NCBI GenBank assembly: GCA_038143065.1
Contig: JAYQLI010000035.1
Coordinates: 608,001 to 672,000, forward strand
Length of the DNA stretch: 64,000 nucleotides
Source of the DNA: Rhodospirillales bacterium
GTDB taxonomy: Bacteria; Pseudomonadota; Alphaproteobacteria; Bin95
Direction of reading: 5' to 3'
The notes under the pieces were generated by a model, which worked only from the letters and a program-made list of their open reading frames with translations, was not told the origin of the DNA and did not search any database. Below, in pieces: positions 20,504 through 42,339 of this stretch (the stretch's first letter is position 1; each line of letters opens with the position of its first letter). Both the position numbers and the translations under genes were made by a program.

Positions 20504-20794
20504 TTATCTTTTAAGTTCGGTTTCGATGAATATGAATTCATAGGCGTTTACGTTGATAACATCATGTTCGACACCAGTTTCACGAAAATAAGGCTGACCA
20601 GCTACTAGATTAACTTCTGTTACTGACCCGTCCGAGGCCTCAATCGACAAAACTCCAGTTGTCATTGGCGTTACCATGTAATCCATTTCGTGTTTATGCC
20701 AACCTGTGGCAGCCCCCGGTGGAAACCGCCATTCTGTAACACGGATACGATCGTTATCGATTAAAATAGTGGGTATTGCAGACACTCTAGACAT
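20504..20794 (-). CDS. Small cupin, BauB-like
   Basis: IDNDRIRVTEWRFPPGAATGWHKHEMDY...GVEHDV cupin motifs resembling the beta-alanine degradation cupin BauB. Confidence 0.8.
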   Translation of the reverse strand: MSRVSAIPTILIDNDRIRVTEWRFPPGAATGWHKHEMDYMVTPMTTGVLSIEASDGSVTEVNLVAGQPYFRETGVEHDVINVNAYEFIFIETELKR

Positions 20795-20801
20795 AGTGCT
20801 C

Positions 20802-22131: not shown

Positions 22132-23683
22132 TTATTCCCATTCTATCGTTCCAGGTGGCTTTGAAGTTACATCGTAAGTCACTCGGTTAACGCCTCCCAC
22201 CTCATTAATTATTCGAGTTGCAACCCGGCCTAAAAATTCCATTTCAAACGGATAAAAATCCGCCGTCATCCCATCTGTCGATGTTACAGCCCGCAAAGCT
22301 AGTGCACTTTCATATGTACGCTCATCCCCCATCACCCCTACGGTTGATACAGGCAACAATACAGCAAAAGCTTGCCATATTTCATTGTACAATCCAGCCT
22401 TGCGTATCTCTTCAAGATATATGGCATCAGCTTTTCTTAGGGTTTCTAAGCGACCTTGCGTGATTTTCCCTGGAATTCTTATTGCTAGGCCAGGTCCTGG
22501 AAAGGGATGACGCCCCACAAAAGCATCTGGTAATCCCAACTCACGTCCAAGATCGCGCACCTCATCTTTGAACAACTCTCTCAATGGCTCTAGCAACTGC
22601 AAGTTCATACGCTCAGGCAGCCCGCCAACATTATGGTGGCTTTTAATTGTGACACTGGGCCCACCATCGAAAGATACGCTCTCGATTACATCGGGGTATA
22701 AGGTTCCTTGAGCGAGAAAATCTGCTCCCACCAATACGTTTTGCTTCTGCCTCAAAAATTTCGACAAATAGCCGTCCAATGGTCTTGCGCTTTACCTCTG
22801 GATCCGAAACACCATCTAAATCTCCAAGAAATTTACTTTCTGCTTCAACATGATGCAGCGGAATATTGAAGTGTTGTCTAAATAATGAAACTACCTCTTC
22901 AGCTTCCCCCAATCGGAGCATGCCCGTATCCACAAATATGCACTGTAATTGGTCTCCAATAGCTTCATGGATAAGCACTGCTGCTACAGCGCTATCTACA
23001 CCACCAGACAGGCCACAAATTACTTTCCCGTCGCCGACCTTTGCGCGGATACGAGCAATTTCCTCTTCCCTAAATTTTGCCATTGTCCAGTCACCGGAAC
23101 AAAAGGCGACATTTTTAACAAAATTGCTTATAAGAGCGGCCCCATCTGGCGTATGCACAACTTCTGGATGGAACTGCACCCCAAAATACCCAAAGGCCTC
23201 ATCTGCGATAGCGGCATAGGGTGCGTTAGGCGTTTTAGCAATAACTTTGAAGCCATCAGGCAAAGCTGAAACCGCATCTCCATGGCTCATCCAAACCTGA
23301 TATTTTCCACCAGCCGACCAAACTCCATCGAACAAAGCTGAATTCTCGACAACCTCAATCTGCGCGCGGCCAAACTCACGTTTTTCTGAATTAGTAACAA
23401 GCCCTCCCAGCTGATGAGCCATAGCCTGCTGGCCATAGCAAATACCCAAGACCGGAACGCCTAAATTGAAAACACATTCATCCGCTTGGGGAGCCGATGC
23501 ATTAGTTATGCTAGAGGGTCCGCCTGAAAGAATAATCCCTTTTGGATCATATTCTTTTAGCGTTTCTTGAATAACCTTGTTGAAGGGCCAAATCTCGCAA
23601 TAAACACCTGCTTCCCGTACCCTTCGCGCAATTAATTGAGTTACCTGAGAACCAAAATCGACAATAAGAATACGATCGTGCAT
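22132..23683 (-). CDS. guaA: GMP synthase (glutamine-hydrolysing), frameshifted ~22740
   Basis: [29 protein letters not shown] and [10 protein letters not shown]. Confidence 0.97.
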
Positions 23684-23696
23684 CAAAAATCTTTCA

Positions 23697-25241
<1,545 letters not shown>

Positions 25242-25925
25242 TTATTCAAACTTTCTAAAGCCCGTAGCTACAAGGTACATTTCAGCGGAATCAGAGCGGC
25301 TAGCTGGCGGCTTAGCGTGCTTAACTTCTGAAAAATCCTTTTTTAAAAGATCCAATAATTCACTTGGCGCACCGCCTTGAAAAACCTTTACGGCGAATGT
25401 CCCACCTGTCCCAAGTAATTGGGCAGCTACATCATAAGCAGCTTCGGCCAATGCTCCGATGCGAAGCTGGTCAGTGCGCTTATGACCTGTGGTAGAGGGC
25501 GCCATGTCGGATAAAACAGCATCAGCTAGACCGCCAAGAGCCTGGGATATTTTGCCAACCGCCTCATCCGAAAAGATATCTAACTTCAGGATTGTAGCTC
25601 CATCGATTGGATCTACATCCTGTATGTCGACCCCAACAACAGAGCCTCCATTAAGCCTTTTAGCGATTACCTGAGTCCAACCACCCGGAGCACACCCAAG
25701 ATCAACGAACCGACCATTGGGAGATAAAATATTAAAACGAGTATCAAGTTCTGAAAGCTTGAACGCAGCCCTGCTCCTATATCCCTCTATCTGCGCCTTT
25801 TGAACGTAGGGGTCATTGAGTTGCCTCTGCAACCAACGGGCGGATGCATTTGATCGCCCGCGTGCGGTTCTAACTCGAGTTGCTAGCATTCGTGAACCAT
25901 CACCACGCCGGTTTCCTCTAGCCAT
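25242..25925 (-). CDS. rlmE: 23S rRNA Um2552 methyltransferase
   Basis: WLQRQLNDPYV, YRSRAAFKL, DLGCAPGGW and KPPASR; start taken at MARGNRR. Confidence 0.95.
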   Translation of the reverse strand: MARGNRRGDGSRMLATRVRTARGRSNASARWLQRQLNDPYVQKAQIEGYRSRAAFKLSELDTRFNILSPNGRFVDLGCAPGGWTQVIAKRLNGGSVVGVDIQDVDPIDGATILKLDIFSDEAVGKISQALGGLADAVLSDMAPSTTGHKRTDQLRIGALAEAAYDVAAQLLGTGGTFAVKVFQGGAPSELLDLLKKDFSEVKHAKPPASRSDSAEMYLVATGFRKFE

Positions 25926-26287
25926 TAGTTTCCTAAATCCTGAGTAATTGGCGGGATTCAGATGAAGATCATTATCATCACAGGCCGCCAGAAGACATAC
26001 TACTTTTGAACAGCCCGTCTGTTTTTCACACGACATGGACCAACCCATCAACAAGATAACGTTTCTCATGCCTGTGCTCGTTGATAATGGAGCTAGAACC
26101 AAAAAGACCTCCAAATCCATACTCACTGTCACTTTTGGTTCTTGCAAGTTTTCGTAATTTCCAAAATAGGGCAGTCATAAATTGTTTGCGAAAATTACAG
26201 TCGGCTTGCGCTTGGCTATACCATCGTTTCCTCGGGTACAAAAGCATAGATCAAAATGAAAAATCCCATAGAATCAAAGGTTAAATA

Positions 26288-26302
26288 TTCACATTTTGTG
26301 AA
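26288..26302. promoter_or_regulatory. Perfect palindrome TTCACA-N3-TGTGAA upstream of the cytochrome cluster (candidate operator)
   Basis: Inverted repeat seen ~76 nt before ATG 26378; its function is inferred only. Confidence 0.35.
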
Positions 26303-26377
26303 GTAACGAGCTTTCGTCCTAGGCAGATGGGTGTTAAGCTTATGCGCAAATTTGAATCTTAGTGATGGAAACGCGCC

Positions 26378-27262
26378 ATGAGACTCTCATTTTCCACTTT
26401 AGTGTTGGCTGGCCTGTTAGGGATCATGTCATTGACATCTACAGGTGCGATTGCTGCTAGCAATGTAGGTCCAAAAAAATGTCAAGAATGCCATCGAGCT
26501 GAGCATGATGTATGGAAAGGTAGCGCGCATTTTAAGGCTTTCCGAGGTGCTCACAAAGCGAAAGGTGCTAAGGAAATAGCCAAAGCATCAGGTGGCGGCA
26601 AATCAATGAGACGAAACCAGGTGTGTGTGGCATGCCATTACACCGAAGTAGGCGGAAAGCCAAAAGCAGGCCCTTCTTGTGAGAGCTGTCATGGCGGCGC
26701 CTCAGAGTGGCTTTCGATACACAATGATAAAGCAATGCCGAAAGAGCAACGATTAGCTGCTGCTAAGGACGCTGGGATGATTCATTCCTCAATGCTTTTT
26801 GAAATTGCTCAAAATTGTAATGGCTGCCACACAATGCAGAATGTAGACCCTGCAATGGCTGGGAAACTCATTGATGCTGGCCATCCTATCAATGGTGATT
26901 ACGAGTTAGTTAAGTATAGCCAAGGTCAAGTTCGGCATCGTTTCTACCCTCCTGACGTCACCGTAAACCAAGAAATGTCGAAGTCCGAATTGGCTAATAT
27001 GTTTCTAACAGGTCATGCTGTTGGTCTGGTTTATGCGACTAACGGTATCGCTAAGTCCGATAATGCCAAGTACAAGGCCGAAATGCAGAAGCGGGTAGAT
27101 GCAGCCACCAAGGCTCTAGGAGCAGTAAAAGATCAAATTCCTGCTGCTAATAAGCTTCTATCAAGCCCTAACGAAGGTAATGCTAGAAGTTTTATTACTG
27201 AAATCACTGGTAAAGATCTATCAGCCGCAGTAGGTGCGATGTTGCCCAGCAGCTACAAGTAA
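26378..27262 (+). CDS. Periplasmic tetraheme c-type cytochrome (cytochrome c554-like N-domain plus helical C-domain)
   Basis: Sec signal ending AIA; CQECH, CVACH, CESCH and CNGCH. Confidence 0.9.
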   Translation: MRLSFSTLVLAGLLGIMSLTSTGAIAASNVGPKKCQECHRAEHDVWKGSAHFKAFRGAHKAKGAKEIAKASGGGKSMRRNQVCVACHYTEVGGKPKAGPSCESCHGGASEWLSIHNDKAMPKEQRLAAAKDAGMIHSSMLFEIAQNCNGCHTMQNVDPAMAGKLIDAGHPINGDYELVKYSQGQVRHRFYPPDVTVNQEMSKSELANMFLTGHAVGLVYATNGIAKSDNAKYKAEMQKRVDAATKALGAVKDQIPAANKLLSSPNEGNARSFITEITGKDLSAAVGAMLPSSYK

Positions 27263-27428
27263 GGTTTTTAGGGAATTAACCTAGTGCCTCTTATTAAACG
27301 CGAGCTCAAGACCTTAAAACCAAGCTGCAGGTTACCTTTAGTTTTGGGATTTTGTCTTACTGTTGAGGGATCCGGAAAAATATTTGTTAGTTCGCATCAT
27401 CACAGCTTAGGATCTAAAGGAGGACGGG

Positions 27429-29069
27429 TTGGCAGTTGCAACTAGGTTAACAAGGCCTCAACGCTGGGACAGGCCTTTTGACCCTGCGATGTCGCAGAGT
27501 CGACTAGATTTGTTGATGCAGAATTCTGTTATTGATGCGATAGATTCTGAAGCTTTCCCTAAGACAATTCCTCTATCGGGAATTATCGAAAATGATACTA
27601 GATTATTACAATTTTCGGCCGGAGAAATTGTTGTACGTGAAGGGGACTATGGAAATTCAGCTTTTTTGGTACTTTCCGGTAAGGTTCAGGTTGTAATTAA
27701 TCCTCCGCTATCTGCAGAACAAATTGGACGGGAAAACACACCTCCATCTCGATTTAGCAACGCTGTCGCTCAAATATTTAGACGCAGAACGGCACCTGAA
27801 GTTCGTGACCTCAATCGTTATGGACAATTAGGTCTTTCAAACTCGGATCAAACTTCGAATTCAGATAAACAGGCTGTTTTCCTTCAAGATTTTCCGATGA
27901 TATTAAGGGATAGAGACACGGCCGAAATTGGAGAAGGAAGTCTTTTTGGAGAGCTTGCTGCTCTTGGGCGTACACCCCGGTCGGCTTCAATTATTTGCAG
28001 TGAAGACGCTGAACTTTTGGAAATTCGCTGGCAAGGCCTCAGGGAATTACGCAGATTTGATGCTGGATGGCGTCGCCAAATAGACGAAAATTACAGGAAA
28101 AATGCTCTTTTAGCGCACCTTCAGGATACCCCTCTTTTCTCAAAGCTTTCGTCGGAGACTCTCGCTACGATAGCATCAGCTACATTATTTGAGACATATG
28201 GGTCTTTTGATTGGAGTTCTTCTTTTCAGCGGTCTGGAGCAGAAGATGCCCTGCGCAGCGAGCCCGTTATTGCTCGAGAAGGTGAGTATCCCGATGGCCT
28301 ACTCTTAGTGAGAGCAGGTTTTGCGAGAGTTTCCGTCAAGCAAGGTTCTGGGGAGCGAACGCTAACATACTTGGGAGCTGGGGACACATTTGGACTGCAT
28401 GAGTTATATCACGGCTGGCAGGGCTCAGAAGCGCTAAATGGAACAACTCTTAGAGCAATAGGCTATGTAGATGCTCTGAGGGTCCCAACCCACATTCTAG
28501 AGGAACATGTTTTCCCTACGCTTTTATCTGCACCTGACAGTCTTCTAGATTTTGCGCGACGTCCGTTAGCGGAAGACGCAATGCAAGAATGGTTAGTTGA
28601 GCAACGGTTCATCAACGGAACAAAAGGTATGCTCATTAACCTCGATAAGTGCGTGAGGTGCGATGATTGTGTGCGTGCGTGTGCCTCTACGCATGACGGG
28701 AACCCTAGATTTATCCGACACGGTAAGACTCACGATCACTGGATGGTAGCAAACGCCTGTATGCATTGTGCTGATCCAGTTTGCATGATCGGGTGCCCAA
28801 CCGGGGCGATCCATCGATCACTTACTGGAGGATCCGTTGTCATAAATGACGATACATGTATCGGTTGCGGAACGTGCGCTAATTCTTGTCCCTACAATAA
28901 CATTAGATTGGTGGAAATTAGAGATTTAGCAGGTCGGCCTGTTCAGGATGAAGCAACCGGAACACCAATCCGCAAAGCGACAAAATGTGATTTATGCTCA
29001 GGAATTCCAGGCGGCCCTGCATGTGAACGGGCCTGTGCTCATGGCGCGCTACAGCGTGTTAGTTTTTAG
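27429..29069 (+). CDS. Tandem cyclic-nucleotide-binding domains fused to a DmsB/NrfC-like 4x[4Fe-4S] ferredoxin
   Basis: GEIVVREGDYGNSAFLVLSG...FGELAALGRTPRSASI (cNMP-1); second cNMP domain IAREGEYPDGLLLVRAGF; CVRCDDCVRAC, CMHCADPVCMIGC, CIGCGTCANSC and CDLC...C...C; AAGGAGG RBS; no signal peptide. Confidence 0.9.
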   Translation: MAVATRLTRPQRWDRPFDPAMSQSRLDLLMQNSVIDAIDSEAFPKTIPLSGIIENDTRLLQFSAGEIVVREGDYGNSAFLVLSGKVQVVINPPLSAEQIGRENTPPSRFSNAVAQIFRRRTAPEVRDLNRYGQLGLSNSDQTSNSDKQAVFLQDFPMILRDRDTAEIGEGSLFGELAALGRTPRSASIICSEDAELLEIRWQGLRELRRFDAGWRRQIDENYRKNALLAHLQDTPLFSKLSSETLATIASATLFETYGSFDWSSSFQRSGAEDALRSEPVIAREGEYPDGLLLVRAGFARVSVKQGSGERTLTYLGAGDTFGLHELYHGWQGSEALNGTTLRAIGYVDALRVPTHILEEHVFPTLLSAPDSLLDFARRPLAEDAMQEWLVEQRFINGTKGMLINLDKCVRCDDCVRACASTHDGNPRFIRHGKTHDHWMVANACMHCADPVCMIGCPTGAIHRSLTGGSVVINDDTCIGCGTCANSCPYNNIRLVEIRDLAGRPVQDEATGTPIRKATKCDLCSGIPGGPACERACAHGALQRVSF

Positions 29070-29080
29070 AAGGAAACGCT

Positions 29081-29908
29081 GTGGTGCACACCCCTAAATC
29101 AACTTTATCGTTTGGATTGACCTTTTCTCTTGTTGCCGTGTTATGCCTTATAGGTCTAGCCTATTTTTCTCACCAGGAAATGTTGAACCTAAGTGACGCC
29201 TCTTTTGTGACTGTCTGGATACTTCTTGGGATAATGTTTTCACTAGGTATTTTTAATATACGAAAACGTATGTCAGCTCTTCCTCTAGGGCGAGCCGCTT
29301 ACTGGCTGACGTTGCATGTAGTGCTAGGTTTCTTTGCAGTCGGCACATTTCTTGTTCATACTAATTATGTTTGGCCTACCGGAGTATATGAACAGCTGTT
29401 GGCTAGTCTTTTCTGGCTCACAGCAGTCTCAGGGATGTTAGGTTGGCTGTATCAGAGAGCGATACCGCGGCGGCTATCCAGAATCGGGTATGAAGTTATC
29501 TTTGAGCGCGTCCCTGCTGAAATTGCACATCTTCGTGAAGAAGCAGAAGCGGCTGCTCTTGAAGCAGTAGGTAACAGTGGTGAACCAACCTTGGGCCGTT
29601 TCTACTCAGAAACATTAGATTGGTTTTTTCAGCGCCCACGTTTTGCCATATCGCATCTCTTGGGAACTGGTGCTGCTGCTCATTGGCTAGAGCATCGTAT
29701 CGCTGCTGTACGAAGATTGTTAGGTTCTGCCGAACTAAAAGCACTTGATGAAATCGAAAAAATAGCTCAACTAAAGATTTCAGTAGATGCTCACTATGCA
29801 ATTCAACGATCACTCAAACTTTGGGTTTTTGCGCACGTTTTGCTGACTTCAGCAACCCTCTCATTGTCTGTTTGGCATCTCATTTTGGTTCATGTGTACG
29901 CTAGATGA
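29081..29908 (+). CDS. Inner-membrane protein, predicted diheme cytochrome b (ferric-reductase-like)
   Basis: About 5 hydrophobic segments; two H-x13-H pairs (HVVLGFFAVGTFLVH and HVLLTSATLSLSVWH). Confidence 0.7.
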   Translation: MVHTPKSTLSFGLTFSLVAVLCLIGLAYFSHQEMLNLSDASFVTVWILLGIMFSLGIFNIRKRMSALPLGRAAYWLTLHVVLGFFAVGTFLVHTNYVWPTGVYEQLLASLFWLTAVSGMLGWLYQRAIPRRLSRIGYEVIFERVPAEIAHLREEAEAAALEAVGNSGEPTLGRFYSETLDWFFQRPRFAISHLLGTGAAAHWLEHRIAAVRRLLGSAELKALDEIEKIAQLKISVDAHYAIQRSLKLWVFAHVLLTSATLSLSVWHLILVHVYAR

Positions 29909-31973
29909 CTGATACAACAAACCGATACGATCACGATAGCTCGCCTTATGAACGACCTAATCTTCCCTTCCGCTGTGGGCGAGAGGCGGCGTTTGGGAAA
30001 CCATGCCCCAGAGGGCCCACTCTTAATGGAGCTTGTCAAGGGATCTCAGACTGTACCCCGTTTCAAACGAGAAAATCAGTAGTAGACGAAGAGACTGGCG
30101 AACAACGTGAAATATTACGCTGGGAGTGCCGGAGACCCACATGGGCAGGAGGCCCTTGCTCACAAGGCCCTAAACCGGATGGAACTTGTTCTTGTACCCA
30201 CCCACCCTGCGCGCCTCGCCCCACCATCCGTCGTCAACGTGGACGATGGGCTCTTTTGGCTGTAGCTGCGGTTTTTGCCCTTGCCATTGCACTAATGGGT
30301 TTTGGAGGTGCACCTACGCTACCAAGTTCTATCGATCCCGGACAGCTATCTGGTAAACACGCCCAATTTACGGCAGCTGAGGGTTGCGTGGCATGTCATG
30401 ACAGCCATTCCACCTCGCTCGTTGGATGGGTAGGAGCGGTATTTAGTAAAAATACAATTTCTGACTCCTGTGTTTCATGCCATTCCTTTGGTAAAGAACC
30501 GGTTATTGGAAATGAGCCTTCGAAAAATGCCTTGTTGTTCGCAGCCCATAACTGGAATTTTCCAAATAATCCCGATGCGCTAGCCACTAATTGTCAGGGC
30601 TGCCATACAGAGCATAAGGGTGAACTAGCATCGATTACGCCGTTGGTAGATGGTCAGTGTGCGGGTTGCCATACTGAAAAATTTGACAATTTTTCAAAAG
30701 GACATCCTGAGTTCTCAAATACTTTCCCCAATCAAAATCCGCGCACAATAAAATTTTCTCACAGTAATCACTTAGAAGAGTATTTCGCAGATAGTCGTTA
30801 CAAAGAGCTGGCGCCTAAAGAAAATTGTGTGTCATGCCACACTAAACAGGAAAATGGACGACTGTTACCCGGGAGTTTTGATACTGGGTGTGCTGGTTGT
30901 CATGAGCAAGCCATTCGAGAACAAGGCTTTGCTGTAATTGGTTTGCCTGAACTCAGTGATCCTACACTAACAGCAGATGGCGCTGAAACATGCGGTTTCT
31001 CCCAGGCAGAAATAGAGCCTGCAAAAACTCTAATAAGTGCAATTTCTGACTCTATAAGTTCACTTAATTCAGTATCGGAAGCATTTGAAAGAAATAACTC
31101 CTCAGATCTCCAAACAGCGGTAACTGCAGCCGCAGATACCGCGGACGCGCTCGCTGAAACTAAAACTGAACTTGAGGAGGCTTTTGATCGAGAAGAAGCA
31201 GTTTCGCTGGAATACCTTCCCGAAGTTTTATCATATCTTTTAAAACATCCTTCAGATGATTTAGACGCTTACAGCGAGGATGTTGCAAGCCTGCTAATTG
31301 AGCTTGCTCAAAATGGATATGAACCTCTATCGGAATTGCTCGAAGCGACGGGAGGCTCCGCGAACAATCTTTTGGCGGGTCTCTCTGATGAGCTCGTACA
31401 GCGTGTGGTCTGTGCCTGGACCGCTAACCAGGAATACGAAGCACTTAGAGATCCAGAACCAGGTAAAGGCTGGCAAGCCAGCCCTTATCAAATCAGTTAC
31501 ATGCCGACTGGTCACTCGGATAGCGTTGTTAGAAATTGGATTGAATTTTCTCTTAGTGAGGAGGTTCGTGAGAGTGATTTGGGAAATCAAATTACTGAAA
31601 AAATGCTTCATCCTGCGGATGGACCAGGACGCTGCTTTAAGTGCCATGTTGCCCCGGTATCAGAATCTTCTTTACCGACCGTATCTTGGAAAATTCCCAG
31701 TGAAGACCTGCGACCTTTCACCGAGTTTAATCATACCCCTCACTTGAATGTCTTAAACGTTGGTTCGGGCTGCGCGACTTGCCATCAAAGCGTGGAAACT
31801 TCAAAAGTTACCTCTGGAAAAGAAAAAAAAATTCTCCTTCACACCCTAAAGAATTTGGACCAATTAAAAAATCTGTTTGTAGCGATTGCCATAAAGAAGG
31901 TGGTGTGCAACAAACCTGTGTAACTTGTCATCAATATCATACCGAGCCAACTATCAGAAAACGACAAAATTAA
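29905..31973 (+). CDS. Membrane-anchored decaheme c-type cytochrome with N-terminal Cys-repeat domain (frameshift in A9 run 31823-31831)
   Basis: 8 CxxCH in ORF 29905-31923 plus CSDCH and CVTCH in overlapping ORF 31779-31973; one TM at aa ~115-133; ATGA overlap with the upstream gene. Confidence 0.88.
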
Positions 31974-31984
31974 GGAACGACGAC

Positions 31985-33744
31985 ATGACGAACCAGAGCT
32001 GCCCATTGCAGCTGGCCCGCCACTTTGCCGCCGCTTTTCTTACACTCTTACTGATCCTGCCCAGCTCACAAAGTCTGGCAGAAAAGAGTGTGTCTGATCC
32101 TCACGCAGATGTATTTGCTGAAGAGAATTATCCAACTGCTGCGCAATGTGGGACCTGTCATAAACAGATCTACAGAGAGTGGGCGTCAAGCAATCATGCT
32201 TACTCATCTATTTCTCCCATGTTCCATAAATTTGAACAGAAGATTAACGATCTTTCGAGCGGTACAATTCGCGCATTTTGCGTTCGGTGCCATCAACAAG
32301 TTGGAACTCAGCTCAACGAACGTCGAGACTTACCTCTTTGGGAGCGGAGCCAGATTGCGCGTGAAGGTGTAACGTGCATCACCTGTCACCGAGTGCAAGA
32401 TCAGTTTTACAAGGTAAATGGTGAACGCCATATCGTGCCAGGGCCCATTTATTCTAAAGTCACTGGTGTTGGTGAAGGAGAAACACTTCAAAAGATTATT
32501 GATAACCGCGACGAGTACCGCGTATCCGCCAGCCCCGACGAGCGTGGCGCGCAAATTCATACCGGCATTTACAAGTTTGATCAGATTAACAAGTCCGAGT
32601 TCTGTGTGTCTTGTCACCAAGTTGCCGTGAACCCAGGAATTAAACTTGAGGTTGTTTGGGACCAATATCGAAACTCCCCTGCCGCAGCTGCAGGCGTTAC
32701 CTGTCAAGATTGTCATATGGGTAAAGTACCAGGCCGAGCTGATGGTTATGAAACGGCTCCGGTAGCCATTGTTAATGGTGAGGAGATCGATCCAGACCGC
32801 AAACACTCAAATCACGCCTTTTACGGTCCAGGATACCCAATAGCACATCCTGGAATTTTCCCCCATAATCCTGACGCGGCTGAAATTCCAATCGAAGATT
32901 GGCTGCAATTTGACTATCGAGCAGGCTGGGGTTCACCAGAATTTGAAGAAAAAGTGGATGCTGGAGAAATCAGTGAAGATATCTTCCCAGATGCATGGGC
33001 AGACGTTGTTGATCGTGAAGAGGCGTATGAAATTATCCAGGAGAACATTGAACTTCTAGAAGAAAAACGTGAACTTCGTCGACAAGTAATGGAGAATGGT
33101 TCACGTGTAGACGGTCCGTTTTTTGCAAGTGCACCTAGATCCGGCTCATCCATGAGCTTTAAGATTAAAGTTACAAATACCGACGATGGGCATAACCTTC
33201 CATCGGGTTCTCTGGGAGCACAGCCTGAAATCTGGCTCAATGTAGCGGTGGTATCCCCATCTGGTAAGACGGTGTAGGAATCAGGTTATGTAGATAGCAT
33301 CGGCGACATGGCCGACAATCACTCCTAGATGTGGCGGCAGGCACAATTGATCACGACAATCAGTTGTTCAATCTGCAAACAAAATTCCTCTTCACCAATG
33401 TAAAAGGAACAGATAGGGAATGGTATCTTCCTATCAACGTAGATATTGACCAATTACCGTTCATACGACCACCAAATGTACCTACAACAATCCTGAACCA
33501 CCCTCCCTTCATTAGAATGGAAGGTCGCTCAATCCCGCCTCTTGGGGTACGAGACGCCAACTTTAGAGTGCCCTCAAGCGCTATGGTTGAGAAAGGCACA
33601 TACAAAATGGCAATCAGAATGCGTAGTCGTGCTGAGCCAATGTATTTCATGCGTTTCGTCGAAGCTACGCCTGAGATGGAAGAAGCCATGAATGAGTGGA
33701 TGTTAGATTTCCACGCCTACACCGTCGAATTCGACGTCAAGTAG
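31985..33744 (+). CDS. Periplasmic pentaheme c-type cytochrome with heme-free C-terminal domain (internal TAG at 33275, frameshift ~33325)
   Basis: Signal peptide ending SLA; CGTCH, CVRCH, CITCH, CVSCH and CQDCH; GHNLPSG; the frame continues past TAG (ESGYVDSIGDMADNHS) and joins ORF 33331-33744 with one extra base. Confidence 0.85.
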
Positions 33745-33818
33745 ATTGTTGAGATGCTTTCATTCAAACATTTTAATTGGTTAACCTCAGTCCATTTCTA
33801 TATAAAGGGGCTAAATCC

Positions 33819-35363
33819 GTGAGAGTTATTGAGCTCGCCAGAAGCAGCCATAAGCCCTTAATGGTAGCTACATGTGCTTCGTTGGTATTGCTTGCCACAT
33901 CAAACATCGCTGTTGCGGCTGGGCCTGACATTGATCGACCACGTGAGATGGACGGAAGCGTCCGTGTAACAGATTACGACGATAGTGTTTTTAAAGCTGA
34001 TCCTACTTACGAAGATAAGCCATATAGTGCTGAAGAGCAGATTAAGATCTATGGTGGCAAGAAGGACATCAAGGAACCCAGACCAATCATTGAAATTGGT
34101 CAGCCTCAATACATTGAGGGGCCCTTTAACCAATCCGATGGCTTTAAAGATTTAGGAGATAAAAACCCATTTTCTTGGGCTTTCTCAGTCTTCGGCGATT
34201 TCAGAACTGCAGTTGCCGGAAATGATATTGGTAACGACGAAGTATTTGAATGGGCGAATGTCCTGAACTTAGATGTTGACCTTAAGATTACATCAACCGA
34301 GAGAATACACGCTTTCCTAAAACCAATCGACCAGGGAGCAAATGTAGCAGGCTTCAGAACCGGAGATGATAGCGGGAATAATGGTTTTAACGGTGATGTT
34401 GATGCCGGGTTAGAAACCTTATTCTTTGAAGGTGATCTAGGCGTGATCGCGTCTGGTTTAACCGATGAATATCAATCTCAAGATCTGCCATTTTCGTTTG
34501 GACTAGTCCCTTTAATTATGCAAAACGGCCTCTGGGTAGATGACGCATTTCTTGGGGGAGGTTTCGCCTTCCCATCAATGAACAGCCCATTGCTCGATAT
34601 CACTAATATGGACATAACCTTCTTCTCTGGTTTTGGCGAAATTGATTCACCAGCCATTGCAGATGCTAATGGTACAGCATTCAATAATGAGGCCATGCTG
34701 TTCGGTGCCGCGGCATTTATTGAATGGTTTGAAGGTTATTCTGAATTTGGCATTGGTTACGTCGAAGGCACACAGGAAGTTGGAGATATTGATTACTTCA
34801 ACATTACCGGTGCGTTTACCAGAAGGTATGGTGGTTGGCTTTCAAACAGCGTTCGGCTGTTTGGTGCTGTAGGACAGGACACAAATAACCGAGCAAAAAC
34901 TGCTGACGGATTTGCGCTTCTCGTTGAGAACTCTCTCATTACAAGCAAACCAGGCACATACGTTCCTTATGGCAATTTTTGGATTGGCATGGATAAGCCT
35001 CAGGCTTTAGCTAAAAACAATGGTGGGCTTTTAAGAAATACAGGCATAACATTCGAAGCAGATGGGATGACGAGTTTTCCCAAACTCGATGACACCGCAA
35101 ATGATACCTACGGTGGCGCCATTGGCATTAACTACCTGTTTAGTCTTGACCAGCAGCTAGTTGTCGAGGCCTCAACAGTACAAATGCTTGAAGGTGACAA
35201 TCAAGCTGGGCAGTCCGCACAAGGCGCTCAGTATGCGGTTGGCTTTAGGTATCAGAAACCAATTACTAATCGTGTAATTCTACGCACCGATGGTATTTAT
35301 GCCGTTCGAGAAAATGCCAAAGATGTGGCTGGTGTCCGTTTTGAAGTTCGCATAAAGTTTTAG
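33819..35363 (+). CDS. Outer-membrane beta-barrel protein (putative porin)
   Basis: Signal peptide ending AVA; Gly/Asp/Asn/aromatic-rich amphipathic strands; C-terminal VRFEVRIKF BAM-type signal. Confidence 0.75.
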   Translation: MRVIELARSSHKPLMVATCASLVLLATSNIAVAAGPDIDRPREMDGSVRVTDYDDSVFKADPTYEDKPYSAEEQIKIYGGKKDIKEPRPIIEIGQPQYIEGPFNQSDGFKDLGDKNPFSWAFSVFGDFRTAVAGNDIGNDEVFEWANVLNLDVDLKITSTERIHAFLKPIDQGANVAGFRTGDDSGNNGFNGDVDAGLETLFFEGDLGVIASGLTDEYQSQDLPFSFGLVPLIMQNGLWVDDAFLGGGFAFPSMNSPLLDITNMDITFFSGFGEIDSPAIADANGTAFNNEAMLFGAAAFIEWFEGYSEFGIGYVEGTQEVGDIDYFNITGAFTRRYGGWLSNSVRLFGAVGQDTNNRAKTADGFALLVENSLITSKPGTYVPYGNFWIGMDKPQALAKNNGGLLRNTGITFEADGMTSFPKLDDTANDTYGGAIGINYLFSLDQQLVVEASTVQMLEGDNQAGQSAQGAQYAVGFRYQKPITNRVILRTDGIYAVRENAKDVAGVRFEVRIKF

Positions 35364-35447
35364 CTTAGACAAAAAAGCCTACTAATAGATTGGCGTTAGT
35401 ATTTTTACTTAAGATTGTACGACCCAAAATCTTGGGAGGATATTAAG

Positions 35448-36718
35448 GTGGAAAATATGGCGGCTTATTTAGCCACTGCTGCAGCTAGTCTCCTTGCTAT
35501 TTATATCCTGACGTTAATCTATGGATCGATTAGACAACAACTTCAGCTCGCTCGTCACTTTGAAGAACAGTCCTCACTTTTCAGAGCACGAGCAGATAGT
35601 CTGCAAAAAGCGCGGGCAGAAGAAATCCAAAAGACTCAAAATACCTGGAATGGTTTTAGAAAATTTGAGGTCGCTGAAAAAATAAACGAAATTGATGATT
35701 GCCACTCAATCTACTTAAAGCCACATGATGGGCGCCCTCTACCTCCCTTCGAGCCAGGACAATTTCTGACTTTTAAGTTTAAGGTTCCAGATCAAGCAAG
35801 CGATGTGATCAGATGTTACTCGCTGTCTGATGCACCTGGTAGAGATTACTACAGGATCACTGTTAAAAAGGTACCACCGCCACGAGGAAAGCCTGAATTA
35901 CCGTCTGGTGTTTCGTCCACGTATGTTAACGAAGTTCTCAAACAAGGTGATATTATTGATGTGAGAGCTCCGAACGGTGGCTTTTATCTGCAAAGGCAAC
36001 ATCGCCGTCCAGTCGTACTCATCGGTGGCGGTGTGGGGATCACTCCTGTTCTAAGCATGCTTAATTATATCATAGAGCATGAACCAGATCGTGAGACTTG
36101 GTTTTTCTTTGGTGCTCCCAACAAAGCAGGGCACATAATGCAGCAACATCTAAGAGAAGTTGCCGAGAACCATCCAAATATTAATATGAATATTTGTTAC
36201 TCTGACCCTACTGAAGACGATGTGCATGGCGAGGATTATGACCACCATGCTCGGGTGTCTGTGGAGCTCTTCAAAGAATTGCTTCCATCAAACAACTATG
36301 AGTACTACTTCTGCGGCCCTCCCCAATGATGAATGCCCTGGATGCCGATTTAAAGGCCTGGGGCGTACCGGAAGCGGACATACACTACGAGGCGTTTGGG
36401 CCAGCTTCGGTAAAGAAAGCCGCTCCACCTGCAGCGGCAAGCGAAGGCACTGAAGCTGCAGCTGCCATACCTTTAACGTTTGCAAAGTCAGGAAAGACAC
36501 TCGATTGGACACCAGCATCAGGTACAATTTTAGATTTAGCCGAAGCAAATGGAGTAGACATCGCATCAGGCTGTAGAGCCGGTAGCTGCGGAACATGCTT
36601 GACGGCAATCATTGAAGGTGATGTTGGATACGCAACACCACCTGATGCGGCTGTAGAAAATGGCTCTTGTTTGTCATGTGTTGGGACGCCTAAATGCCCT
36701 TTAAAAATCGACGCCTAG
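35448..36718 (+). CDS. Membrane-anchored FAD/NAD(P)H oxidoreductase with C-terminal [2Fe-2S] ferredoxin (frameshift ~36320)
   Basis: N-terminal TM; PGQFL, RCYSL, GGGVGITP and CGPP(P)MM; CRAGSCGTC...C; GGAGGA RBS before GTG 35448. Confidence 0.9.
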
Positions 36719-37678
36719 CAGGAGGACTAGTTAGGCAGGCCAACTCCTGGATAGTAAACCTTACCGGAATATCTATAGTTGTCTCAACGGGGCGGCCTCC
36801 TTTTATTGCAGGCTTAAATCTCCAGTTTTTAACCGCTTTCAATGCTGCGTTATCCAGTCGATCAAATCCGCTTGTTTGGATGATTATTGCATGGGTGGTT
36901 GTGCCGGTAATCGATATATCCAATCGGACCCTAACAACCCCTCTTCACCCAATCGTTTTGAGACACTCGGATAAATTGGTGGCGCATTTTTAGAAAGTAT
37001 TGAAACAGGCTGATGCTCGAACTGTTGATTGCGGGCGTTCTTGCTCGATGACAACAGATAATATTCTAATTTATTATCATTTTTAAAAGATCTTCCTTCA
37101 GCATGTATATCTGATCTCTGGCTCTTAAAATCGCCTTGACGAACAAGATCAACGCTATCCAATTGCGGGTATGATTTTAAAGAAACCTGTCTATCTAAAT
37201 CTAAGCCTACCGCACTACTAACGACTTTGACCTCTGCGGATTTTACTTTTTTACCGAGCAAGTTCTGCAGGACTTCGGGTGTTTTTGCAGAGTGTGAAAA
37301 CTGCACTAGTTTGGAAGACGCTAATGACTCAGCATCTTGATTGGCAGAAACAATCCCTACTTCGGCTTGCTTTAATAATATACCTGGCTTCGCAGTACCA
37401 ATCGTCTCGGTTGATATGCGTTGCTCTGATCTTTCGGAAACCCTAGACCGCAAAGTTATAACTTTTTCTATCTCTTTCAATGACAACTGGTTTTCAAAAC
37501 CCGTAGGGATACTGGGCTCATAATTCTGTGGTATTTCAAATAATAAACTAATCGGGATCGCATCTTTTTGAACCGGTTTGTTAAATGCGTGATTGGCAAA
37601 AATTGCCAATACCAAAGCAAAATGGCATGCAAACGAGACAATTAGGAATTTTTTAAATGATGATGAGTATAGGGACAT
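36690..37678 (-). CDS. tonB: TonB family energy transducer (frameshift ~36935)
   Basis: N-terminal TM with SFACH; PIYPSVSKRLGEEG; C-domain TSGFDRLDNAALKAVKNWRFKPA...IPVRF. Confidence 0.85.
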
Positions 37679-37696: not shown

Positions 37697-38473
37697 TTAA
37701 GCATCGCTCGAAATTATCCTTTCGAAATCTAACCCCTCTTTAATTTCTCCTCCTATCGGCCTTATCCCAAAACATTGGAATAAATTTTCATTGTTAAAGA
37801 CTACCTGTGGTTTATCAAAGCTTATACAGGTACCAAATTGTCCCAACAAAAGAGCTTTATCGGCAAATCGAAAAGCATGACGTATTTCGTGAGTTGTGAA
37901 AATTACTATCCTATCGGATGCAGCAATTTCTTTAAGCTTGGCCATCACATCAAGTTGGACACCAGGATCAAGCGCGGCTGCCGGTTCATCTGCAAGTAAA
38001 ATCTCAGGATCACCTACCAATGCCCGCGCTAGGTGTACTCTCTGTAACTCACCACCTGACAACTCGTTTGCGGGACGGTGAGTTAGTCTTTCCAATCGAA
38101 AATTTTCAATTTGCCGATCAATTTTTTCATTTTCAGATGCCGTAATTTTATCTAATCGGCTTCCAAACGGCACCAGTCCAAGGGCAACGACATCTCTTAC
38201 GGAAAGTGCCCAATGTATTTCAGATCGTTGGGGAAGATACGAGATGCACCGCGCACGAAAATTTGAATCCAGTTGGGTTAATTCCCTTCCATTAAAAAGG
38301 ATGCTGCCAGAACTCAAAGAACTAAGTGATGCCAACGCCCTTAGAAGAGTTGTTTTTCCGGCGCCATTTGGTCCTGATACCGCAAGCAGATTTCCACTGG
38401 TGATATTAAAACTAATGTTTTTAAGATATCCACCCTTCGTAACAGACAATTGCTTTACCGCTATCTCACTCAA
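37697..38473 (-). CDS. btuD: Cobalamin/iron-siderophore ABC transporter ATPase (BtuD-like)
   Basis: GPNGAGKTT, LSGGELQR and LLADEP; lies in the B12-riboswitch operon. Confidence 0.8.
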   Translation of the reverse strand: MSEIAVKQLSVTKGGYLKNISFNITSGNLLAVSGPNGAGKTTLLRALASLSSLSSGSILFNGRELTQLDSNFRARCISYLPQRSEIHWALSVRDVVALGLVPFGSRLDKITASENEKIDRQIENFRLERLTHRPANELSGGELQRVHLARALVGDPEILLADEPAAALDPGVQLDVMAKLKEIAASDRIVIFTTHEIRHAFRFADKALLLGQFGTCISFDKPQVVFNNENLFQCFGIRPIGGEIKEGLDFERIISSDA

Positions 38474-38475
38474 AC

Positions 38476-39456
38476 CTAGCCTCTCCTTAGCTTAAGAATA
38501 AGAGCCAAGAAAAACGGCGCACCAATGAGTGCGGTTAAAACTCCCAATTTTAATTCTGAGCCTACTGAGAACACTCGTACTGCAAGGTCCGCAATCCCAA
38601 GCATGACTGCGCCTCCTAGAGCACTGGCAAAAAGGAGGGCTCCGGGCCGATGCCCAACAAAGGGACGCAATATGTGAGGAACAGCTAAACCAACAAAACC
38701 AATCACGCCGGCAACAGATGTTGCAGCGCCAACTGCCAAGGCTGTTCCAAATATAATCCTAACACTTACACCTCTCAGATTAAGGCCAAGACTACGAGCA
38801 GTTTCGGGGCCTAAAGACAAAGCATCTAGTGATGTACGAACACTTAAAAGTAGCCCCCATCCAATCATCATGAATGGGAGTGATACCCAAAGATGCTCCA
38901 TGCTACGGTCGGCCAACGAGCCCATTAACCAAAAGATAATCTCAGTTGCGGCAAAGGGATTTGGCGCAAAATTTAGTGCTAACGCTGTTAAAGAACCGGC
39001 TAAACTCGATATAGCCACACCTGCTAAAATTAGAGTTTCAGAATTACCTGCTCGACCAGCTAAAAACCAAACAAGCACTGTCGCCAACAGCGCCGATACA
39101 ATTCCTGCTAACGGGAGTATTAGCGTCCATCCCCCAAAAGCACCAAAGTAGAAAACTATAACCGAACCCAACGCAGCTGCAGGACCAGATCCTAATAAAG
39201 CAGGTTCGGCTAATGGGTTTTGCAAAAACCCTTGAAGGGCGGCCCCGCTTAGACCCAACGACGCTCCAATCGATATTGCAAGCAATATCCTAGGTAATCG
39301 CACTTCAAGCAGGATCAGCTTTGTTAAATTACTTCCTTCGCCAGACAACTCCTTAGCGGCTTCGTATAGTGAAATATTAGCGGGCCCATATAGTAACCCT
39401 GCGAAAAATACAGCCAAAACACTCAGGACAAGGAGTATGTATGAGTGAATCTTCAC
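38476..39456 (-). CDS. btuC: FecCD/BtuC-family ABC permease
   Basis: RLPRILLA, LQNPLAEP and GVIGFVGLAVPH. Confidence 0.85.
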   Translation of the reverse strand: MKIHSYILLVLSVLAVFFAGLLYGPANISLYEAAKELSGEGSNLTKLILLEVRLPRILLAISIGASLGLSGAALQGFLQNPLAEPALLGSGPAAALGSVIVFYFGAFGGWTLILPLAGIVSALLATVLVWFLAGRAGNSETLILAGVAISSLAGSLTALALNFAPNPFAATEIIFWLMGSLADRSMEHLWVSLPFMMIGWGLLLSVRTSLDALSLGPETARSLGLNLRGVSVRIIFGTALAVGAATSVAGVIGFVGLAVPHILRPFVGHRPGALLFASALGGAVMLGIADLAVRVFSVGSELKLGVLTALIGAPFFLALILKLRRG

Positions 39457-40280
39457 TCCATATTCTCCCGAATGCGACGAAGCTTATTGAATGCCTCAGT
39501 TATAAACGGACTTCCACAAGTCCATAACCTATCTGGAATTGTTGTAGAGCGGTCATCCTTAAATATCACTTTAAGGGACCGATGACGTGGTACTATGCTT
39601 GCTAACGATGCAGGGCCATTTTCTGGAAGTATGAGAAGGTCTGGTTGGAGTGAAATTAATTCTTCAACTGAAAAATATTTTGGAACTTTAGAATTATGTC
39701 GACTGTTCAGATCGAGAAAACCAGCATGCCGGGTCACGCGAGCTGCTAACGAACTACTTCCTGGCGTATAACCATTATCCCAATAAAGAGCCGCGGTAAG
39801 CTTTTGCTTATTAAGCCCAGAAGACATCTTAAGTGCTTGATTGAGATGCTTGATAATACTTTCACCAGCTGCCTTCTCACCAACAGCGTTCGCAACAACT
39901 CTTATATTTCTCTGAATGCCATCAAAATCATTTGCTATCGGAAGTTCAAGTACATTAATGCCGGCACGTTTTAGCAATTTAACAGTGGATCGTGCTGAAA
40001 AGCCTCCAGAAAACACTATGTCTGGATTAAGAGGTAAAATTTCCTCTACAAGACCATAGTTTCTATGAAACCCTTTGGCTTTATCTGAAAGAGCTGAAAA
40101 ATTTGGATTGCTCGCAAAGTAACTCAAAGAAACGACATGTTGCTCTTTCGCGAGAAGCATCACCAACTGATCTGCGCAAAGATGAGTAGAGACAATTCTC
40201 TTCGGCGTGGCAGCAGAAGCGTGGAAATCACTATAAAGAACTAGGAGTAAGGATAAACTTACTTTGATAAATACTCTCAT
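39453..40280 (-). CDS. btuF: Periplasmic cobalamin-binding protein (BtuF-like)
   Basis: Signal peptide; PKRIVSTHLCADQL; WTCGSP. Confidence 0.8.
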   Translation of the reverse strand: MRVFIKVSLSLLLVLYSDFHASAATPKRIVSTHLCADQLVMLLAKEQHVVSLSYFASNPNFSALSDKAKGFHRNYGLVEEILPLNPDIVFSGGFSARSTVKLLKRAGINVLELPIANDFDGIQRNIRVVANAVGEKAAGESIIKHLNQALKMSSGLNKQKLTAALYWDNGYTPGSSSLAARVTRHAGFLDLNSRHNSKVPKYFSVEELISLQPDLLILPENGPASLASIVPRHRSLKVIFKDDRSTTIPDRLWTCGSPFITEAFNKLRRIRENME

Positions 40281-42188
40281 CCCCCCAATTGAACCTGAAG
40301 CCCCATGAACGCGCCAAACCCAGGGTTGGCGGTCCCAAATACGTTCTCATACCTCTCGTTCAGTATATTCTGCAGCCTGCCAAAAATACTCACGCTGTCC
40401 GTTAATTTATATTTGATATTAGAATCAGCTAAAATGTAACTATCCAAAGTTACCGTCTGACTTCCAAAAGGTAATACCGCCTGAAAGGCCGTATCATTTT
40501 GCTTACCATAATAGGTCCCACCAAAATTTATCTCCAAGTCGCCGTTAAAACGAGTAAGTGTGGAACGCAGGCTAGCAATATGTTTAGGGCGGCGAATGAG
40601 CTCAACCCCATTCGCATCTTCTGTCGTTGTGTATGTATACTGTCCACTGAAAGAAAGGTTCGTTGCAGGGCGGATAGAAACCTCAAACTCCGCCCCCTCG
40701 ATCTTATTTTTTCCATTTAAATTTACAGCAGTTGCACCAGCACCCTGAATTAGGTTTTTGATGTTATTTTCAAAATAGGTGGCAGCAAAAGTTGCCTGTC
40801 CATTCATAAATTCTTGCTCAACTCCAACATCCCATCCGTAACTTTTTTCGGATTTCAGATTTGGGTTTGGAGTGAAGCCGGGAGCAAAACCGAATAGTTC
40901 AAAAAGTGTAGGGTTTTTAACCCCTTCTCCATAACTTGTATGAAGGCGAGTTCCAGTATCTTTAACAACGTACGCACCAGTAGTCCGCACGGTATTTGTA
41001 TTTTTGAAAAGGTCATTTTCGTCATGGCGAATACTTGCGCTTAGAAAGATTTGATCAAAAAGATCTAATTTATATTCACCGACAAAACCTATGGTTTCTG
41101 AGTCTACATCTGACTGAATGCCACCACCAAGCACGTCTTGCGCATCAATTTCATTATCAACCAGAAAGGTAAAAACATGAGATGCTTCAGCGAGCGCACT
41201 AGTTTCTATAAAAACATTTGATTGGTAATAAGCCCGTCGTTTATCTCCCTTAAAGGTAGAGGCAAACCCTCCGAAATTCTCTCGGTCAATTTCAGATATT
41301 CCGAGGCCTAATATATGCTCCCATTGCCCTTCAAAGCTCTGCAAAACAGACTTCAGGCCTAAAGAAAATGCCTCACTTTCTGTTTCTGATTGACTGTCTA
41401 CCGGGAGGGAAAAGCCCGCCTACGTTGCCTAGCTCATCAAATTCTTGCTGAGAGTCAACGTAGCGTCCTACGATCTCAAAATCTAAATTTTCAGTCAGCT
41501 GAATCCCAATTTTCGTATTGAACGCAGTAACATCAAATCCATCCTGTTCAGTATTACCCTGGCGCTCTGGAGCGAATGAAACACCTTCGGTACTGAATTC
41601 TGATAACCCAAGGGAGTAATTAACAATTCCTTCCGAACCTCGAACACTTACGGCTGCTTTCCCGGTACCGAATGATCCACCTTCGGCGCTAGCTGCAGCT
41701 TTAATCGCTCCATCTCCGCTTTTAGTTATGATATTAATGACGCCACCTATTGCATCGCTTCCGTAAAGTGAGCTCTGTGGCCCCCGGAGGATTTCTACGC
41801 GCTCAATATCATCTACGAGCAAAGTATTGAAATCGAATTCTGAAGCTCCGCTAGGATCGTTTACTTCCACCCCATCTATTAGAACCAATGTATGGTTGGC
41901 TTCAGTTCCACGCATACGAACTTGCGTTTGCGCCCCAACAGGTCCTGTTCTGCTTAACGAGATACCAGGTACGTCCCGAAAAACGTCAGCTACAAAACTA
42001 GTTTGCTTTCTCGAGAACTCTTCCGATGTCACTACAGAAATAGAGCTGCCAGACGCAATTCGCGAAGTTGGCGTTCGGTTGGCAGTAACGACAACCTCAG
42101 GCATAACCTGAGGATAATTTTGGGCAAAACTCGCGCTTTCGGACACGAATATAAGCCCCGCAAACAATAAAAATCCTGAGAGCCGCAT
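40277..42188 (-). CDS. btuB: TonB-dependent cobalamin receptor (frameshift ~41400)
   Basis: TonB box EVVVTANR; plug RGTEANHTLVLIDG and IERVEILRGPQSSLYGSDAIGGVINIIT; NPNLKSE; directly downstream of the cobalamin riboswitch. Confidence 0.9.
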
Positions 42189-42339
42189 TACGACGTATTC
42201 CCCATAAGACCGTTGCGCCAATGACCGCCTACATGAATGAGGAGTTAAAACACACTCACCCAACAGGCACTCATTACGCATCGCCTATCACGGAGAACCG
42301 TTGCGCTACCTACCCCGGGCTACGCGTGGGCGACACTAA

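Follow-up and report, generated by a model that had tools for sequence, protein, structure and literature searches.

A cluster of seven co-oriented genes lies at positions 26378-36718, on the + strand, of a 64,000-nucleotide stretch of the genome of a Rhodospirillales bacterium (GenBank assembly GCA_038143065.1, contig JAYQLI010000035.1, positions 608,001 to 672,000), and it is this whole stretch that is referred to below as the window. Judged by its predicted products, the cluster is an intact ortholog of the ptdABCDEFG operon, with one-to-one correspondence for all seven, and we think it rather probable that the Ptd proteins form a chain that is fed by NAD(P)H (reduced nicotinamide adenine dinucleotide or its phosphate) and exports electrons across the inner membrane. 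The operon was named in silico in a preprint of 2023-24 (bioRxiv 10.1101/2023.11.21.568154), where its function is given as "completely unknown", ptdAB is reported to be highly transcribed in an oxygen-deficient zone, and the operon is placed in marine Alphaproteobacteria, Gammaproteobacteria, nitrite oxidisers and Planctomycetes. We have found no other paper that uses the ptd names and no follow-up to the preprint; unexplained multiheme clusters have been described in Nitrospinaceae metagenome-assembled genomes (MAGs; PMC11995701), and three of the four named there are among the homologous loci considered below (L041, L059 and L076). An earlier note on this DNA, made from the sequence alone, knew of no characterized example of such a gene set, which is true as regards experiments, although the set had by then been named and described in silico. 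What the present analysis adds is the indication of four clusters in PtdE, a modelled face between PtdE and PtdF, a Cys-rich head on PtdG, the separability of PtdAB and a link to nucleotide cyclases. The cluster is widespread in marine and estuarine bacteria; if Ptd does export NAD(P)H-derived electrons, it would provide a route of extracellular or periplasmic reduction, independent of the quinone pool, in oxic-to-suboxic seawater.

The seven genes of the window, all on the + strand, stand in the order D-E-F-G-A-B-C:

26378..27262, +, g1, PtdD: secreted tetraheme cytochrome c, c554-like (from its open reading frame (ORF), CxxCH motifs and Pfam)
27429..29069, +, g2, PtdE: predicted cytoplasmic protein with two cyclic nucleoside monophosphate (cNMP)-binding domains and a C-terminal NrfC/DmsB-type four-cluster ferredoxin
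29081..29908, +, g3, PtdF: predicted five-helix inner-membrane protein with two H-x13-H pairs, putatively holding two hemes b
29905..31973, +, g4, PtdG: membrane-anchored decaheme cytochrome c with a Cys-rich N-terminal head
31985..33744, +, g5, PtdA: secreted pentaheme cytochrome related to ExtKL and T. tepidum c552, with a non-heme domain at its C-terminus
33777..35363 (the start may be 33819 or 33861), +, g6, PtdB: predicted outer-membrane beta-barrel
35415..36718 (the start may be 35448), +, g7, PtdC: N-terminal transmembrane (TM) helix, ferredoxin-NADP+ reductase (FNR)-type module for flavin adenine dinucleotide (FAD) and NAD(P)H, and plant-type [2Fe-2S] domain

The preprint describes the same set, namely a pentaheme with a beta-sandwich (A), a porin (B), an FAD/NAD(P) oxidoreductase (C), a periplasmic tetraheme (D), a cNMP-binding Fe-S protein (E), a ferric-reductase-like TM protein (F) and a decaheme (G), and the gene order of the window is a circular permutation of its letters. 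With g6 counted from 33819 and g7 from 35448, the intergenic gaps are 166, 11, -4, 11, 74 and 84 nt. There are 19 CxxCH motifs in the cluster (4 in g1, 8 + 2 in g4 and 5 in g5) and 25 in the six frames of the 64-kb window. Hydropathy gives a lone hydrophobic segment, at the N-terminus, for each of g1, g5 and g6, none for g2, several for g3, a single one after a 111-residue head for g4 and a single N-terminal one for g7. The products of g4 and g5 match multiheme families in Pfam and NCBIfam, and searches of both databases with the window proteins of g3 and g6 returned no match. The earlier note had described seven co-oriented genes with these gaps, these gene types and 19 CxxCH, and the ORFs, domains and motif counts bear this out. 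Its remark that the usual partners are missing also stands, in that Pfam and NCBIfam searches of the seven products recovered no quinone-linking CymA/NapC-type protein, no NrfD-type anchor and no catalytic molybdo-subunit inside the cluster, and the predicted locations do, as it proposed, span cytoplasm, inner membrane, periplasm and outer membrane. At E <= 1, Pfam yielded nothing meaningful for the Cys-rich head or the helical insert of PtdG, the C-terminal domain of PtdD, the N-terminal stretch of PtdB or the C-terminal domain of PtdA (the last searched with the sequence from locus L001). Promoter-like sites in the window number 12 (16.8 +/- 4.0 in shuffled sequence) and terminator-like sites 11 (10.9 +/- 3.0); operon boundaries are not readable from them. 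Rfam gave no match at E <= 0.1 over 25900-37200, and there are no inverted repeats within 26100-27500.

Intactness and co-conservation of the seven genes

As assembled, the window sequence carries four breaks in three of the genes: in g4 the frame shifts within a stretch of nine A's (31823-31831), in g5 there is a TAG at 33275-33277 and a shift of frame after 33323, and in g7 the frame shifts after 36320. Taken at face value, these breaks would make the cluster a decaying pseudogene remnant. Contigs of three public DNA runs and of one run from a metatranscriptomic library (X15) were aligned to 29905-36718; two of the DNA runs (X5 and X6) belong to other studies, and the best-matching one (X1) may be the source sample. 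Two of the A's at 31823 are left out in all four runs, i.e., the window has 2 surplus A's. In all three DNA runs 33276 reads G instead of A, turning the TAG into TGG for a conserved Trp, and a C is added after 33323. Finally, all four runs add a nucleotide in g7, either a C after 36320 (X1, X5 and X15) or a T after 36322 (X6). Among the homologous loci that hold both halves of the gene, g5 is a single ORF in 61 of 61, and g7 likewise in 61 of 61. Three of the four breaks sit in homopolymer runs, and several unrelated genes of the window are also split into two adjacent ORFs, among them a short-chain dehydrogenase/reductase (SDR; 19604-20414), an Old Yellow Enzyme (OYE)-type flavoprotein (20802-21966), guaA (22132-23686), guaB (23697-25235) and a TonB-dependent receptor (40277-42281), which fits an indel-prone long-read assembly. 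Because independent public contigs correct all four breaks, and because unrelated window genes are split alike, the ptd genes are intact in nature and all four breaks are assembly errors; the pseudogene reading, to which we give a negligible probability, is thereby refuted. The X15 contigs cover 26 of 30 bins, and one of them spans the g5-g6 junction (33651-34270); DNA is possible in that library, and these contigs cannot demonstrate a transcript, nor do the uncovered bins carry any meaning.

Co-conservation was assessed by a scan with g2, using one genome per species, which returned 198 relatives from which 80 loci were kept and then searched by tblastn with all seven proteins. All seven genes are present in 55 of the 80 loci, and 40 of these 55 have the window order D-E-F-G-A-B-C. 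In 9 others, all titled Nitrospina or Nitrospinota, the g5-g6 pair has moved upstream, and in the remaining 6 the pair is inverted; the gene for PtdB adjoins that for PtdA in every locus where both occur. Incomplete loci number 25, of which 22 are cut by a contig end near the missing genes. Since the core stays together while g5-g6 moves as a pair, the cluster consists of a fixed core, D-E-F-G-C, and a separable end module, A-B. Heme counts of 4 for PtdD, 10 for PtdG and 5 for PtdA are kept in nearly all full-length homologs. The earlier note had held that its idea would fail if the genes were not conserved together across genomes, and the synteny found here refutes such a lack of co-conservation.

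The carriers among the 80 loci are Alphaproteobacteria, Nitrospinota (17 of 80 by record title) and other groups. Within the class of the window genome the distribution is patchy: in an even sample of that class, a PtdF profile detected homologs in 20 of 401 genomes and in 17 of 308 genera (the window's own genome, G000, included). Two genomes of this class sample (G182 and G381) have two PtdF matches each, two loci (L016 and L032) come from one MAG, as judged by a shared isolate name, which would then hold two diverged ptd clusters, and a second tier of PtdF homologs with E values of 1e-60 to 1e-79 suggests a paralogous subtype. One locus (L043, from Kordiimonadales bacterium IMCC3096), which has the full set of seven genes, derives from a record that is titled a complete chromosome and has no MAG label, and its bearer is possibly a cultured carrier.

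Components of the proposed input module and periplasmic relay

PtdC unites FAD_binding_6 (PF00970), NAD_binding_1 (PF00175) and Fer2 (PF00111) in one chain behind a TM helix that hydropathy places at aa 14-40; it matches NF009805 with 223 bits over model positions 142-366 of 399, and its FNR module is closest to the reductase domain of flavohemoglobin. PtdE matches PF00027 (cNMP_binding) with E 4.1e-25 and 88 bits, against a cut-off of 27.5, in three stretches that are followed by Fer4 families, and its NCBIfam matches to AegA, DmsB, DsrO and HydN all fall below their cut-offs (53.3 versus 214.1 bits for DmsB). Its ferredoxin part contains 16 Cys in four motifs (C408/411/414/418, C444/447/452/456, C477/480/483/487 and C520/523/532/536), and since all 16 are invariant in 53 of 53 homologs they indicate that PtdE would carry four Fe-S clusters, as NrfC/DmsB-type proteins do, in contrast to the two 4Fe-4S clusters given in the preprint.

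In PtdF the two H-x13-H pairs, H79/H93 and H252/H266, are unchanged throughout the 48 aligned homologs. The AlphaFold2 (AF2) model of this protein (mean predicted local distance difference test score (pLDDT) 93.1) shows five helices in the membrane and, on the cytoplasmic side, a helical insert of ~80 aa, with the His pairs on the helices at residues 72-94 (helix 3) and 216-274 (helix 5). By our reading of the topology these two helices run in the same direction, which would place one heme near each face of the membrane. Homologs of PtdF give weak Pfam matches to DUF4405 (13 of 48) and to Ferric_reduct, PF01794 (2 of 48, best E 0.027), the window protein giving neither, and the nearest Atlas cluster bears the automatic name ferric-reductase-like (score 0.97).

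A complex model of PtdE residues 375-546 with PtdF scores 0.72, versus 0.00 for the best of 3 controls; in the calibration, 58 of 80 solved complexes and 2 of 110 mismatched pairs attained the mark. Between the three runs at least 88% of the contacts agree, with partner pLDDT of at least 80. The contacts on the PtdE side involve Cys motifs I and IV (C408, C411 and C536), and those on the PtdF side residues 62-76, 125-141 and 238-245, where helices 2-3, 4 and 5 end at the cytoplasm, at a distance of one turn from H79 and H252. As modelled, this interface supports a seating of the PtdE ferredoxin lobe on the cytoplasmic face of PtdF, beside the inner His pair. It is the one contact of the proposed chain that was modelled.

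The first cNMP domain of PtdE has a canonical phosphate-binding cassette, with G174, E175 and R184 unchanged in all 53 homologs. Relatives of class III cyclases occur within the fetched flanks (10 kb) of 16 of the 80 loci by tblastn (9 with a catalytic-domain query), where the cyclase density of the window genome would lead one to expect ~2 of 80 by chance, a figure to be read with the relatedness of the loci, and the possibly higher cyclase content of other genomes, in mind. Pfam confirms CHASE2 adenylate/guanylate cyclases beside ptd in L047 (5333-7618, -), L066 (18774-21029, -), L069 (3559-5799, +) and L074 (5826-7994, -), and a cyclase-TPR protein in L025 (5382-8696, -). The cyclase relatives at ptd loci are often cut by the locus end. 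Together, the one canonical cassette and the cyclases beside 16 of 80 loci are no more than suggestive of gating by cAMP or cGMP.

On the periplasmic side, PtdD matches Pfam Cytochrome_C554 (E 2.4e-10) and, with 50.9 bits and thus under the 400-bit cut-off, NCBIfam Cyt554_Nsmonas; its 4 CxxCH are followed by a C-terminal domain of ~140 aa outside known Pfam families. PtdG is predicted to consist of a cytoplasmic head (aa 1-111), a TM helix (aa 112-140) and, in the periplasm, a heme domain that is interrupted by a helical insert. The preprint calls PtdG periplasmic; here the conserved Cys-rich head would be cytoplasmic and the protein anchored by its TM helix. The head has two C-x9-C-x9-C-x5/6-C repeats, of which C24, C34, C44, C50, C75, C85, C95 and C102 are conserved. 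Residues 1-115 (window 29905-30249), comprising this Cys-rich head, may bind a metal or an Fe-S cluster.

The proposed chain and its alternatives

In the chain that we propose, membrane-tethered PtdC would take electrons from cytoplasmic NAD(P)H through its FAD and then its [2Fe-2S] cluster. PtdE, docked on the cytoplasmic face of PtdF, would relay them through its four [4Fe-4S] clusters to the inner heme of PtdF, and the two bis-His hemes b of PtdF would carry them across the inner membrane. The outer of these hemes would reduce the anchored decaheme PtdG, from which soluble tetraheme PtdD may shuttle electrons through the periplasm to PtdA, and pentaheme PtdA, together with the barrel PtdB, would deliver them to an acceptor at or beyond the outer membrane. 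Binding of a cyclic nucleotide to PtdE would probably switch the chain. Flow of this kind would be downhill and dissipative, as in NOX or ferric reductases, and not part of an energy-conserving respiration, since the potentials and the membrane potential are both expected to favour the outward direction.

That we found no bench experiment on any Ptd protein in the literature weighs against this reading, as do a number of features of PtdF, of the cyclic-nucleotide input, of the energetics and of the outer end. The fold of PtdF lacks a clear match among solved structures, for Foldseek returned 0 hits against the PDB at E <= 0.001 and a wide VIA-align search gave matches at the level of helical bundles only (best Z 10.3, to chemoreceptor sensor domains), with STEAP4 (Z 7.0) and cytochrome b561 (Z 7.7) inside this helical-bundle noise; a quinol site in PtdF is therefore conceivable. 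No fused forms of PtdF were seen among the longer proteins searched, which counts as weak evidence, and the pass of the PtdE-PtdF interface may lean on solved complexes of ferredoxins with cytochromes b, e.g., NarHI and FdnHI. PtdF could accordingly be read as a cytochrome b that reacts with quinones, as NarI or FdnI does, and passes electrons from the quinone pool to the periplasmic hemes, with PtdE and PtdC as accessory or regulatory input, the more so as four-cluster ferredoxins usually sit on quinone-reactive subunits (NarGHI, FdnGHI and DmsABC). We consider this improbable: PtdF has its H-x13-H pairs, on helices 3 and 5, in the spacing of the ferric-reductase domain and not in that of NarI/FdnI, the faint family resemblances of the homologs point toward Ferric_reduct and DUF4405, and a subunit predicted to oxidise NAD(P)H is always in the cluster, with g7 as one ORF in 61 loci. 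The proposed Ptd chain is probably independent of quinones.

The second cNMP domain of PtdE is degenerate and lacks the Arg of the cassette, and the 64-kb window contains no cyclase, the genome's six PF00211 matches lying at least 430 kb from the cluster; we judge the chances that a cyclic nucleotide controls the Ptd chain to be about even. As to direction, an outward chain would spend NAD(P)H, a heavy expense for Nitrospina and other nitrite oxidisers. Nitrospinota account for a good share of the loci by record title and otherwise need reverse electron flow to obtain NAD(P)H, and FNR-type modules are in general reversible, all of which would suit an inward chain, in which a low-potential external or periplasmic donor supplies electrons by way of the hemes, PtdF and PtdE to PtdC, acting as a ferredoxin:NAD(P)+ reductase for autotrophs such as these. 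Such a chain would work against the membrane potential and would need donors near or below the potential of the NAD(P) couple, the cluster contains no energy-coupling subunit, and most carriers are heterotrophic-looking Alphaproteobacteria; we hold it to be highly improbable.

At the outer end of the proposed chain stand PtdA and PtdB, a module that can be separated from the core and whose pentaheme resembles ExtKL and c552. PtdA matches the structure of T. tepidum c552 (PDB 5ZE8, E 1.9e-7) over hemes 1-3 and 4-5, and it gives the sole match in the genome to NCBIfam ExtKL (NF040886; E 1.5e-9, 37 bits versus a cut-off of 250). The AF2 model of PtdB is a beta-barrel (mean pLDDT 80.7; predicted template modelling score (pTM) 0.75) with ~18 strands by hand count on the DSSP line, preceded by a conserved but poorly modelled N-terminal periplasmic stretch of ~100 aa. 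In Foldseek searches its top matches are MOMP (5ldv, E 8.2e-11), OccK/OprD, AlgE and chitoporin, so that it resembles 18-strand substrate channels and not the 26-strand MtrB, and the window copy of the cluster encodes neither a lipoprotein nor a surface cytochrome. Moreover, three loci (L006, L036 and L077) have g1-g2-g3-g4-g7 and lack g5-g6 in the flanks retrieved (4.8-6.6 kb for L006 and 8.9-10 kb for the others). The conduit reaching the outer membrane that the earlier note had envisaged is consequently not borne out as regards the crossing itself, which we consider possible while leaning against it.

The main rival to our reading shares its inner-membrane chain but ends it in the periplasm, where PtdA would be the terminal enzyme for a small soluble substrate (an N-oxide, iodate, selenite or a peroxide) and PtdB the dedicated channel for that substrate. 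The channel-like barrel suits this proposal, as does the character of PtdAB as a swappable end module; PtdA of the window has an ordinary signal peptide and no lipobox, it weakly matches the Cytochrom_C552 (NrfA) family of Pfam (E 9e-7), and the preprint puts it in the same COG as NrfA. On the other hand, the five CxxCH of PtdA are accompanied by at least 6 further conserved His that could serve as distal ligands, which leaves no obviously open heme; the cluster of its relative ExtKL has a part in reducing insoluble Fe and Mn oxides (PMC6148476); and PtdA of Nitrospinota has a lipobox and a long linker, like proteins that are anchored in the outer membrane or exposed at the surface. On balance we regard a periplasmic end as unlikely. 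The lipobox-like motif (L-x-S-C) and the linker, rich in Lys, Met, Glu and Ala, were seen in the Nitrospinota homologs of L037, L045, L059, L070, L076 and L080, and the alphaproteobacterial homologs, that of the window included, have the plain signal peptide.

Returning to the export reading, its most specific form would make Ptd a split bacterial analogue of NOX and the ferric reductases, switched by cNMP, bypassing quinones and feeding 19 c-hemes that lead to the outer membrane, by which aerobic and microaerobic marine bacteria, Nitrospina among them, might obtain iron by reducing extracellular Fe(III) or else make extracellular superoxide. We advance this form tentatively and think it somewhat unlikely; if true, it would mean that electrons are exported for nutrition or signalling and not for respiration.

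The surroundings of the cluster differ from locus to locus. Downstream of it in the window, at 37697-42281 (-), are a FecCD-type permease, a periplasmic binding protein, an ABC ATPase and a TonB-dependent receptor, which together look like an uptake operon of the iron-chelate type, and a 264-aa ORF without Pfam match and without relatives in the 80 loci lies between the cluster and this transporter (36884-37678, -). The window neighbours are not kept beside the cluster in the 80 loci (0 of 80 for most, 4 for a CoA-transferase and 2 for the ABC ATPase), and this applies to guaA/guaB, ftsJ and the FecCD/TonB uptake genes alike; the adjoining uptake operon was for this reason rejected as evidence for a role in iron metabolism. 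In one clade of carriers the gene immediately after ptdC, on its strand, encodes a TolC-like outer-membrane efflux protein (Pfam OEP; L007, at 19191-21173, +; L008, L009, L011, L015, L025, L031 and L057).

Comparison with known systems

With the porin-cytochrome systems MtrCAB, MtoAB and PioAB, the ptd cluster has in common that multiheme cytochromes are encoded beside an outer-membrane barrel. It differs from them in that PtdB has no match to the MtrB/PioB family (Pfam and NCBIfam) and ~18 instead of 26 strands, in that the DmsE/MtrA model TIGR03508 reaches 34.8 bits with g5 and 16.7 bits with g4 against a cut-off of 192.2, and in that the cluster contains no CymA/NapC quinol dehydrogenase and no surface decaheme lipoprotein. 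The closer parallel at the outer end is the ExtHIJKL cluster of Geobacter sulfurreducens, which contributes to Fe and Mn reduction and in which the periplasmic pentaheme ExtKL is encoded beside the barrel ExtI with no outer-surface cytochrome (PMC6148476); ExtKL and T. tepidum c552 have been grouped in one pentaheme family (PMC11976967). Unlike Ext, Ptd has no counterpart of the rhodanese lipoprotein ExtH (no rhodanese domain was found by Pfam in the seven ORFs), no ExtJ and no selenocysteine. For ExtI 21 strands have been described, compared with ~18 in PtdB, and Ext has no input module of NAD(P)H, Fe-S and heme b components. PtdA homologs, at ~590-770 aa, are also longer than the 435-residue chain of c552 (PDB 5ZE8), a protein whose own physiological role is given as unknown in the preprint that named ptd.

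At the inner membrane two other comparisons apply. PtdE shares with the NrfC/DmsB ferredoxins the four Cys motifs and their 16 Cys, but the cluster has no gene for an NrfD/DmsC anchor or a molybdopterin subunit. NarH-NarI and FdnH-FdnI likewise combine a four-cluster ferredoxin with a di-heme cytochrome b, and the modelled placement of the PtdE ferredoxin on PtdF, a predicted two-heme membrane protein, resembles theirs, whereas ptd has no catalytic molybdo-subunit, PtdF is unrelated to NarI and FdnI by sequence, and PtdE has cNMP-binding domains, has no Tat signal and is predicted to be cytoplasmic. The members of the NOX/FRE/STEAP/MsrQ group hold bis-His hemes by H-x13-H pairs on helices 3 and 5 and move electrons outward without energy conservation. 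PtdF has His pairs with this same spacing on the same two helices and would be fed, as they are, by an FNR-type NAD(P)H-FAD module. It differs from these proteins in having five helices and not six, and the window copy has no Pfam match to Ferric_reduct; in Ptd, furthermore, the flavin module resides on a protein of its own, which is tethered to the membrane and has a [2Fe-2S] domain in addition, and a four-cluster ferredoxin would be interposed between it and the hemes.

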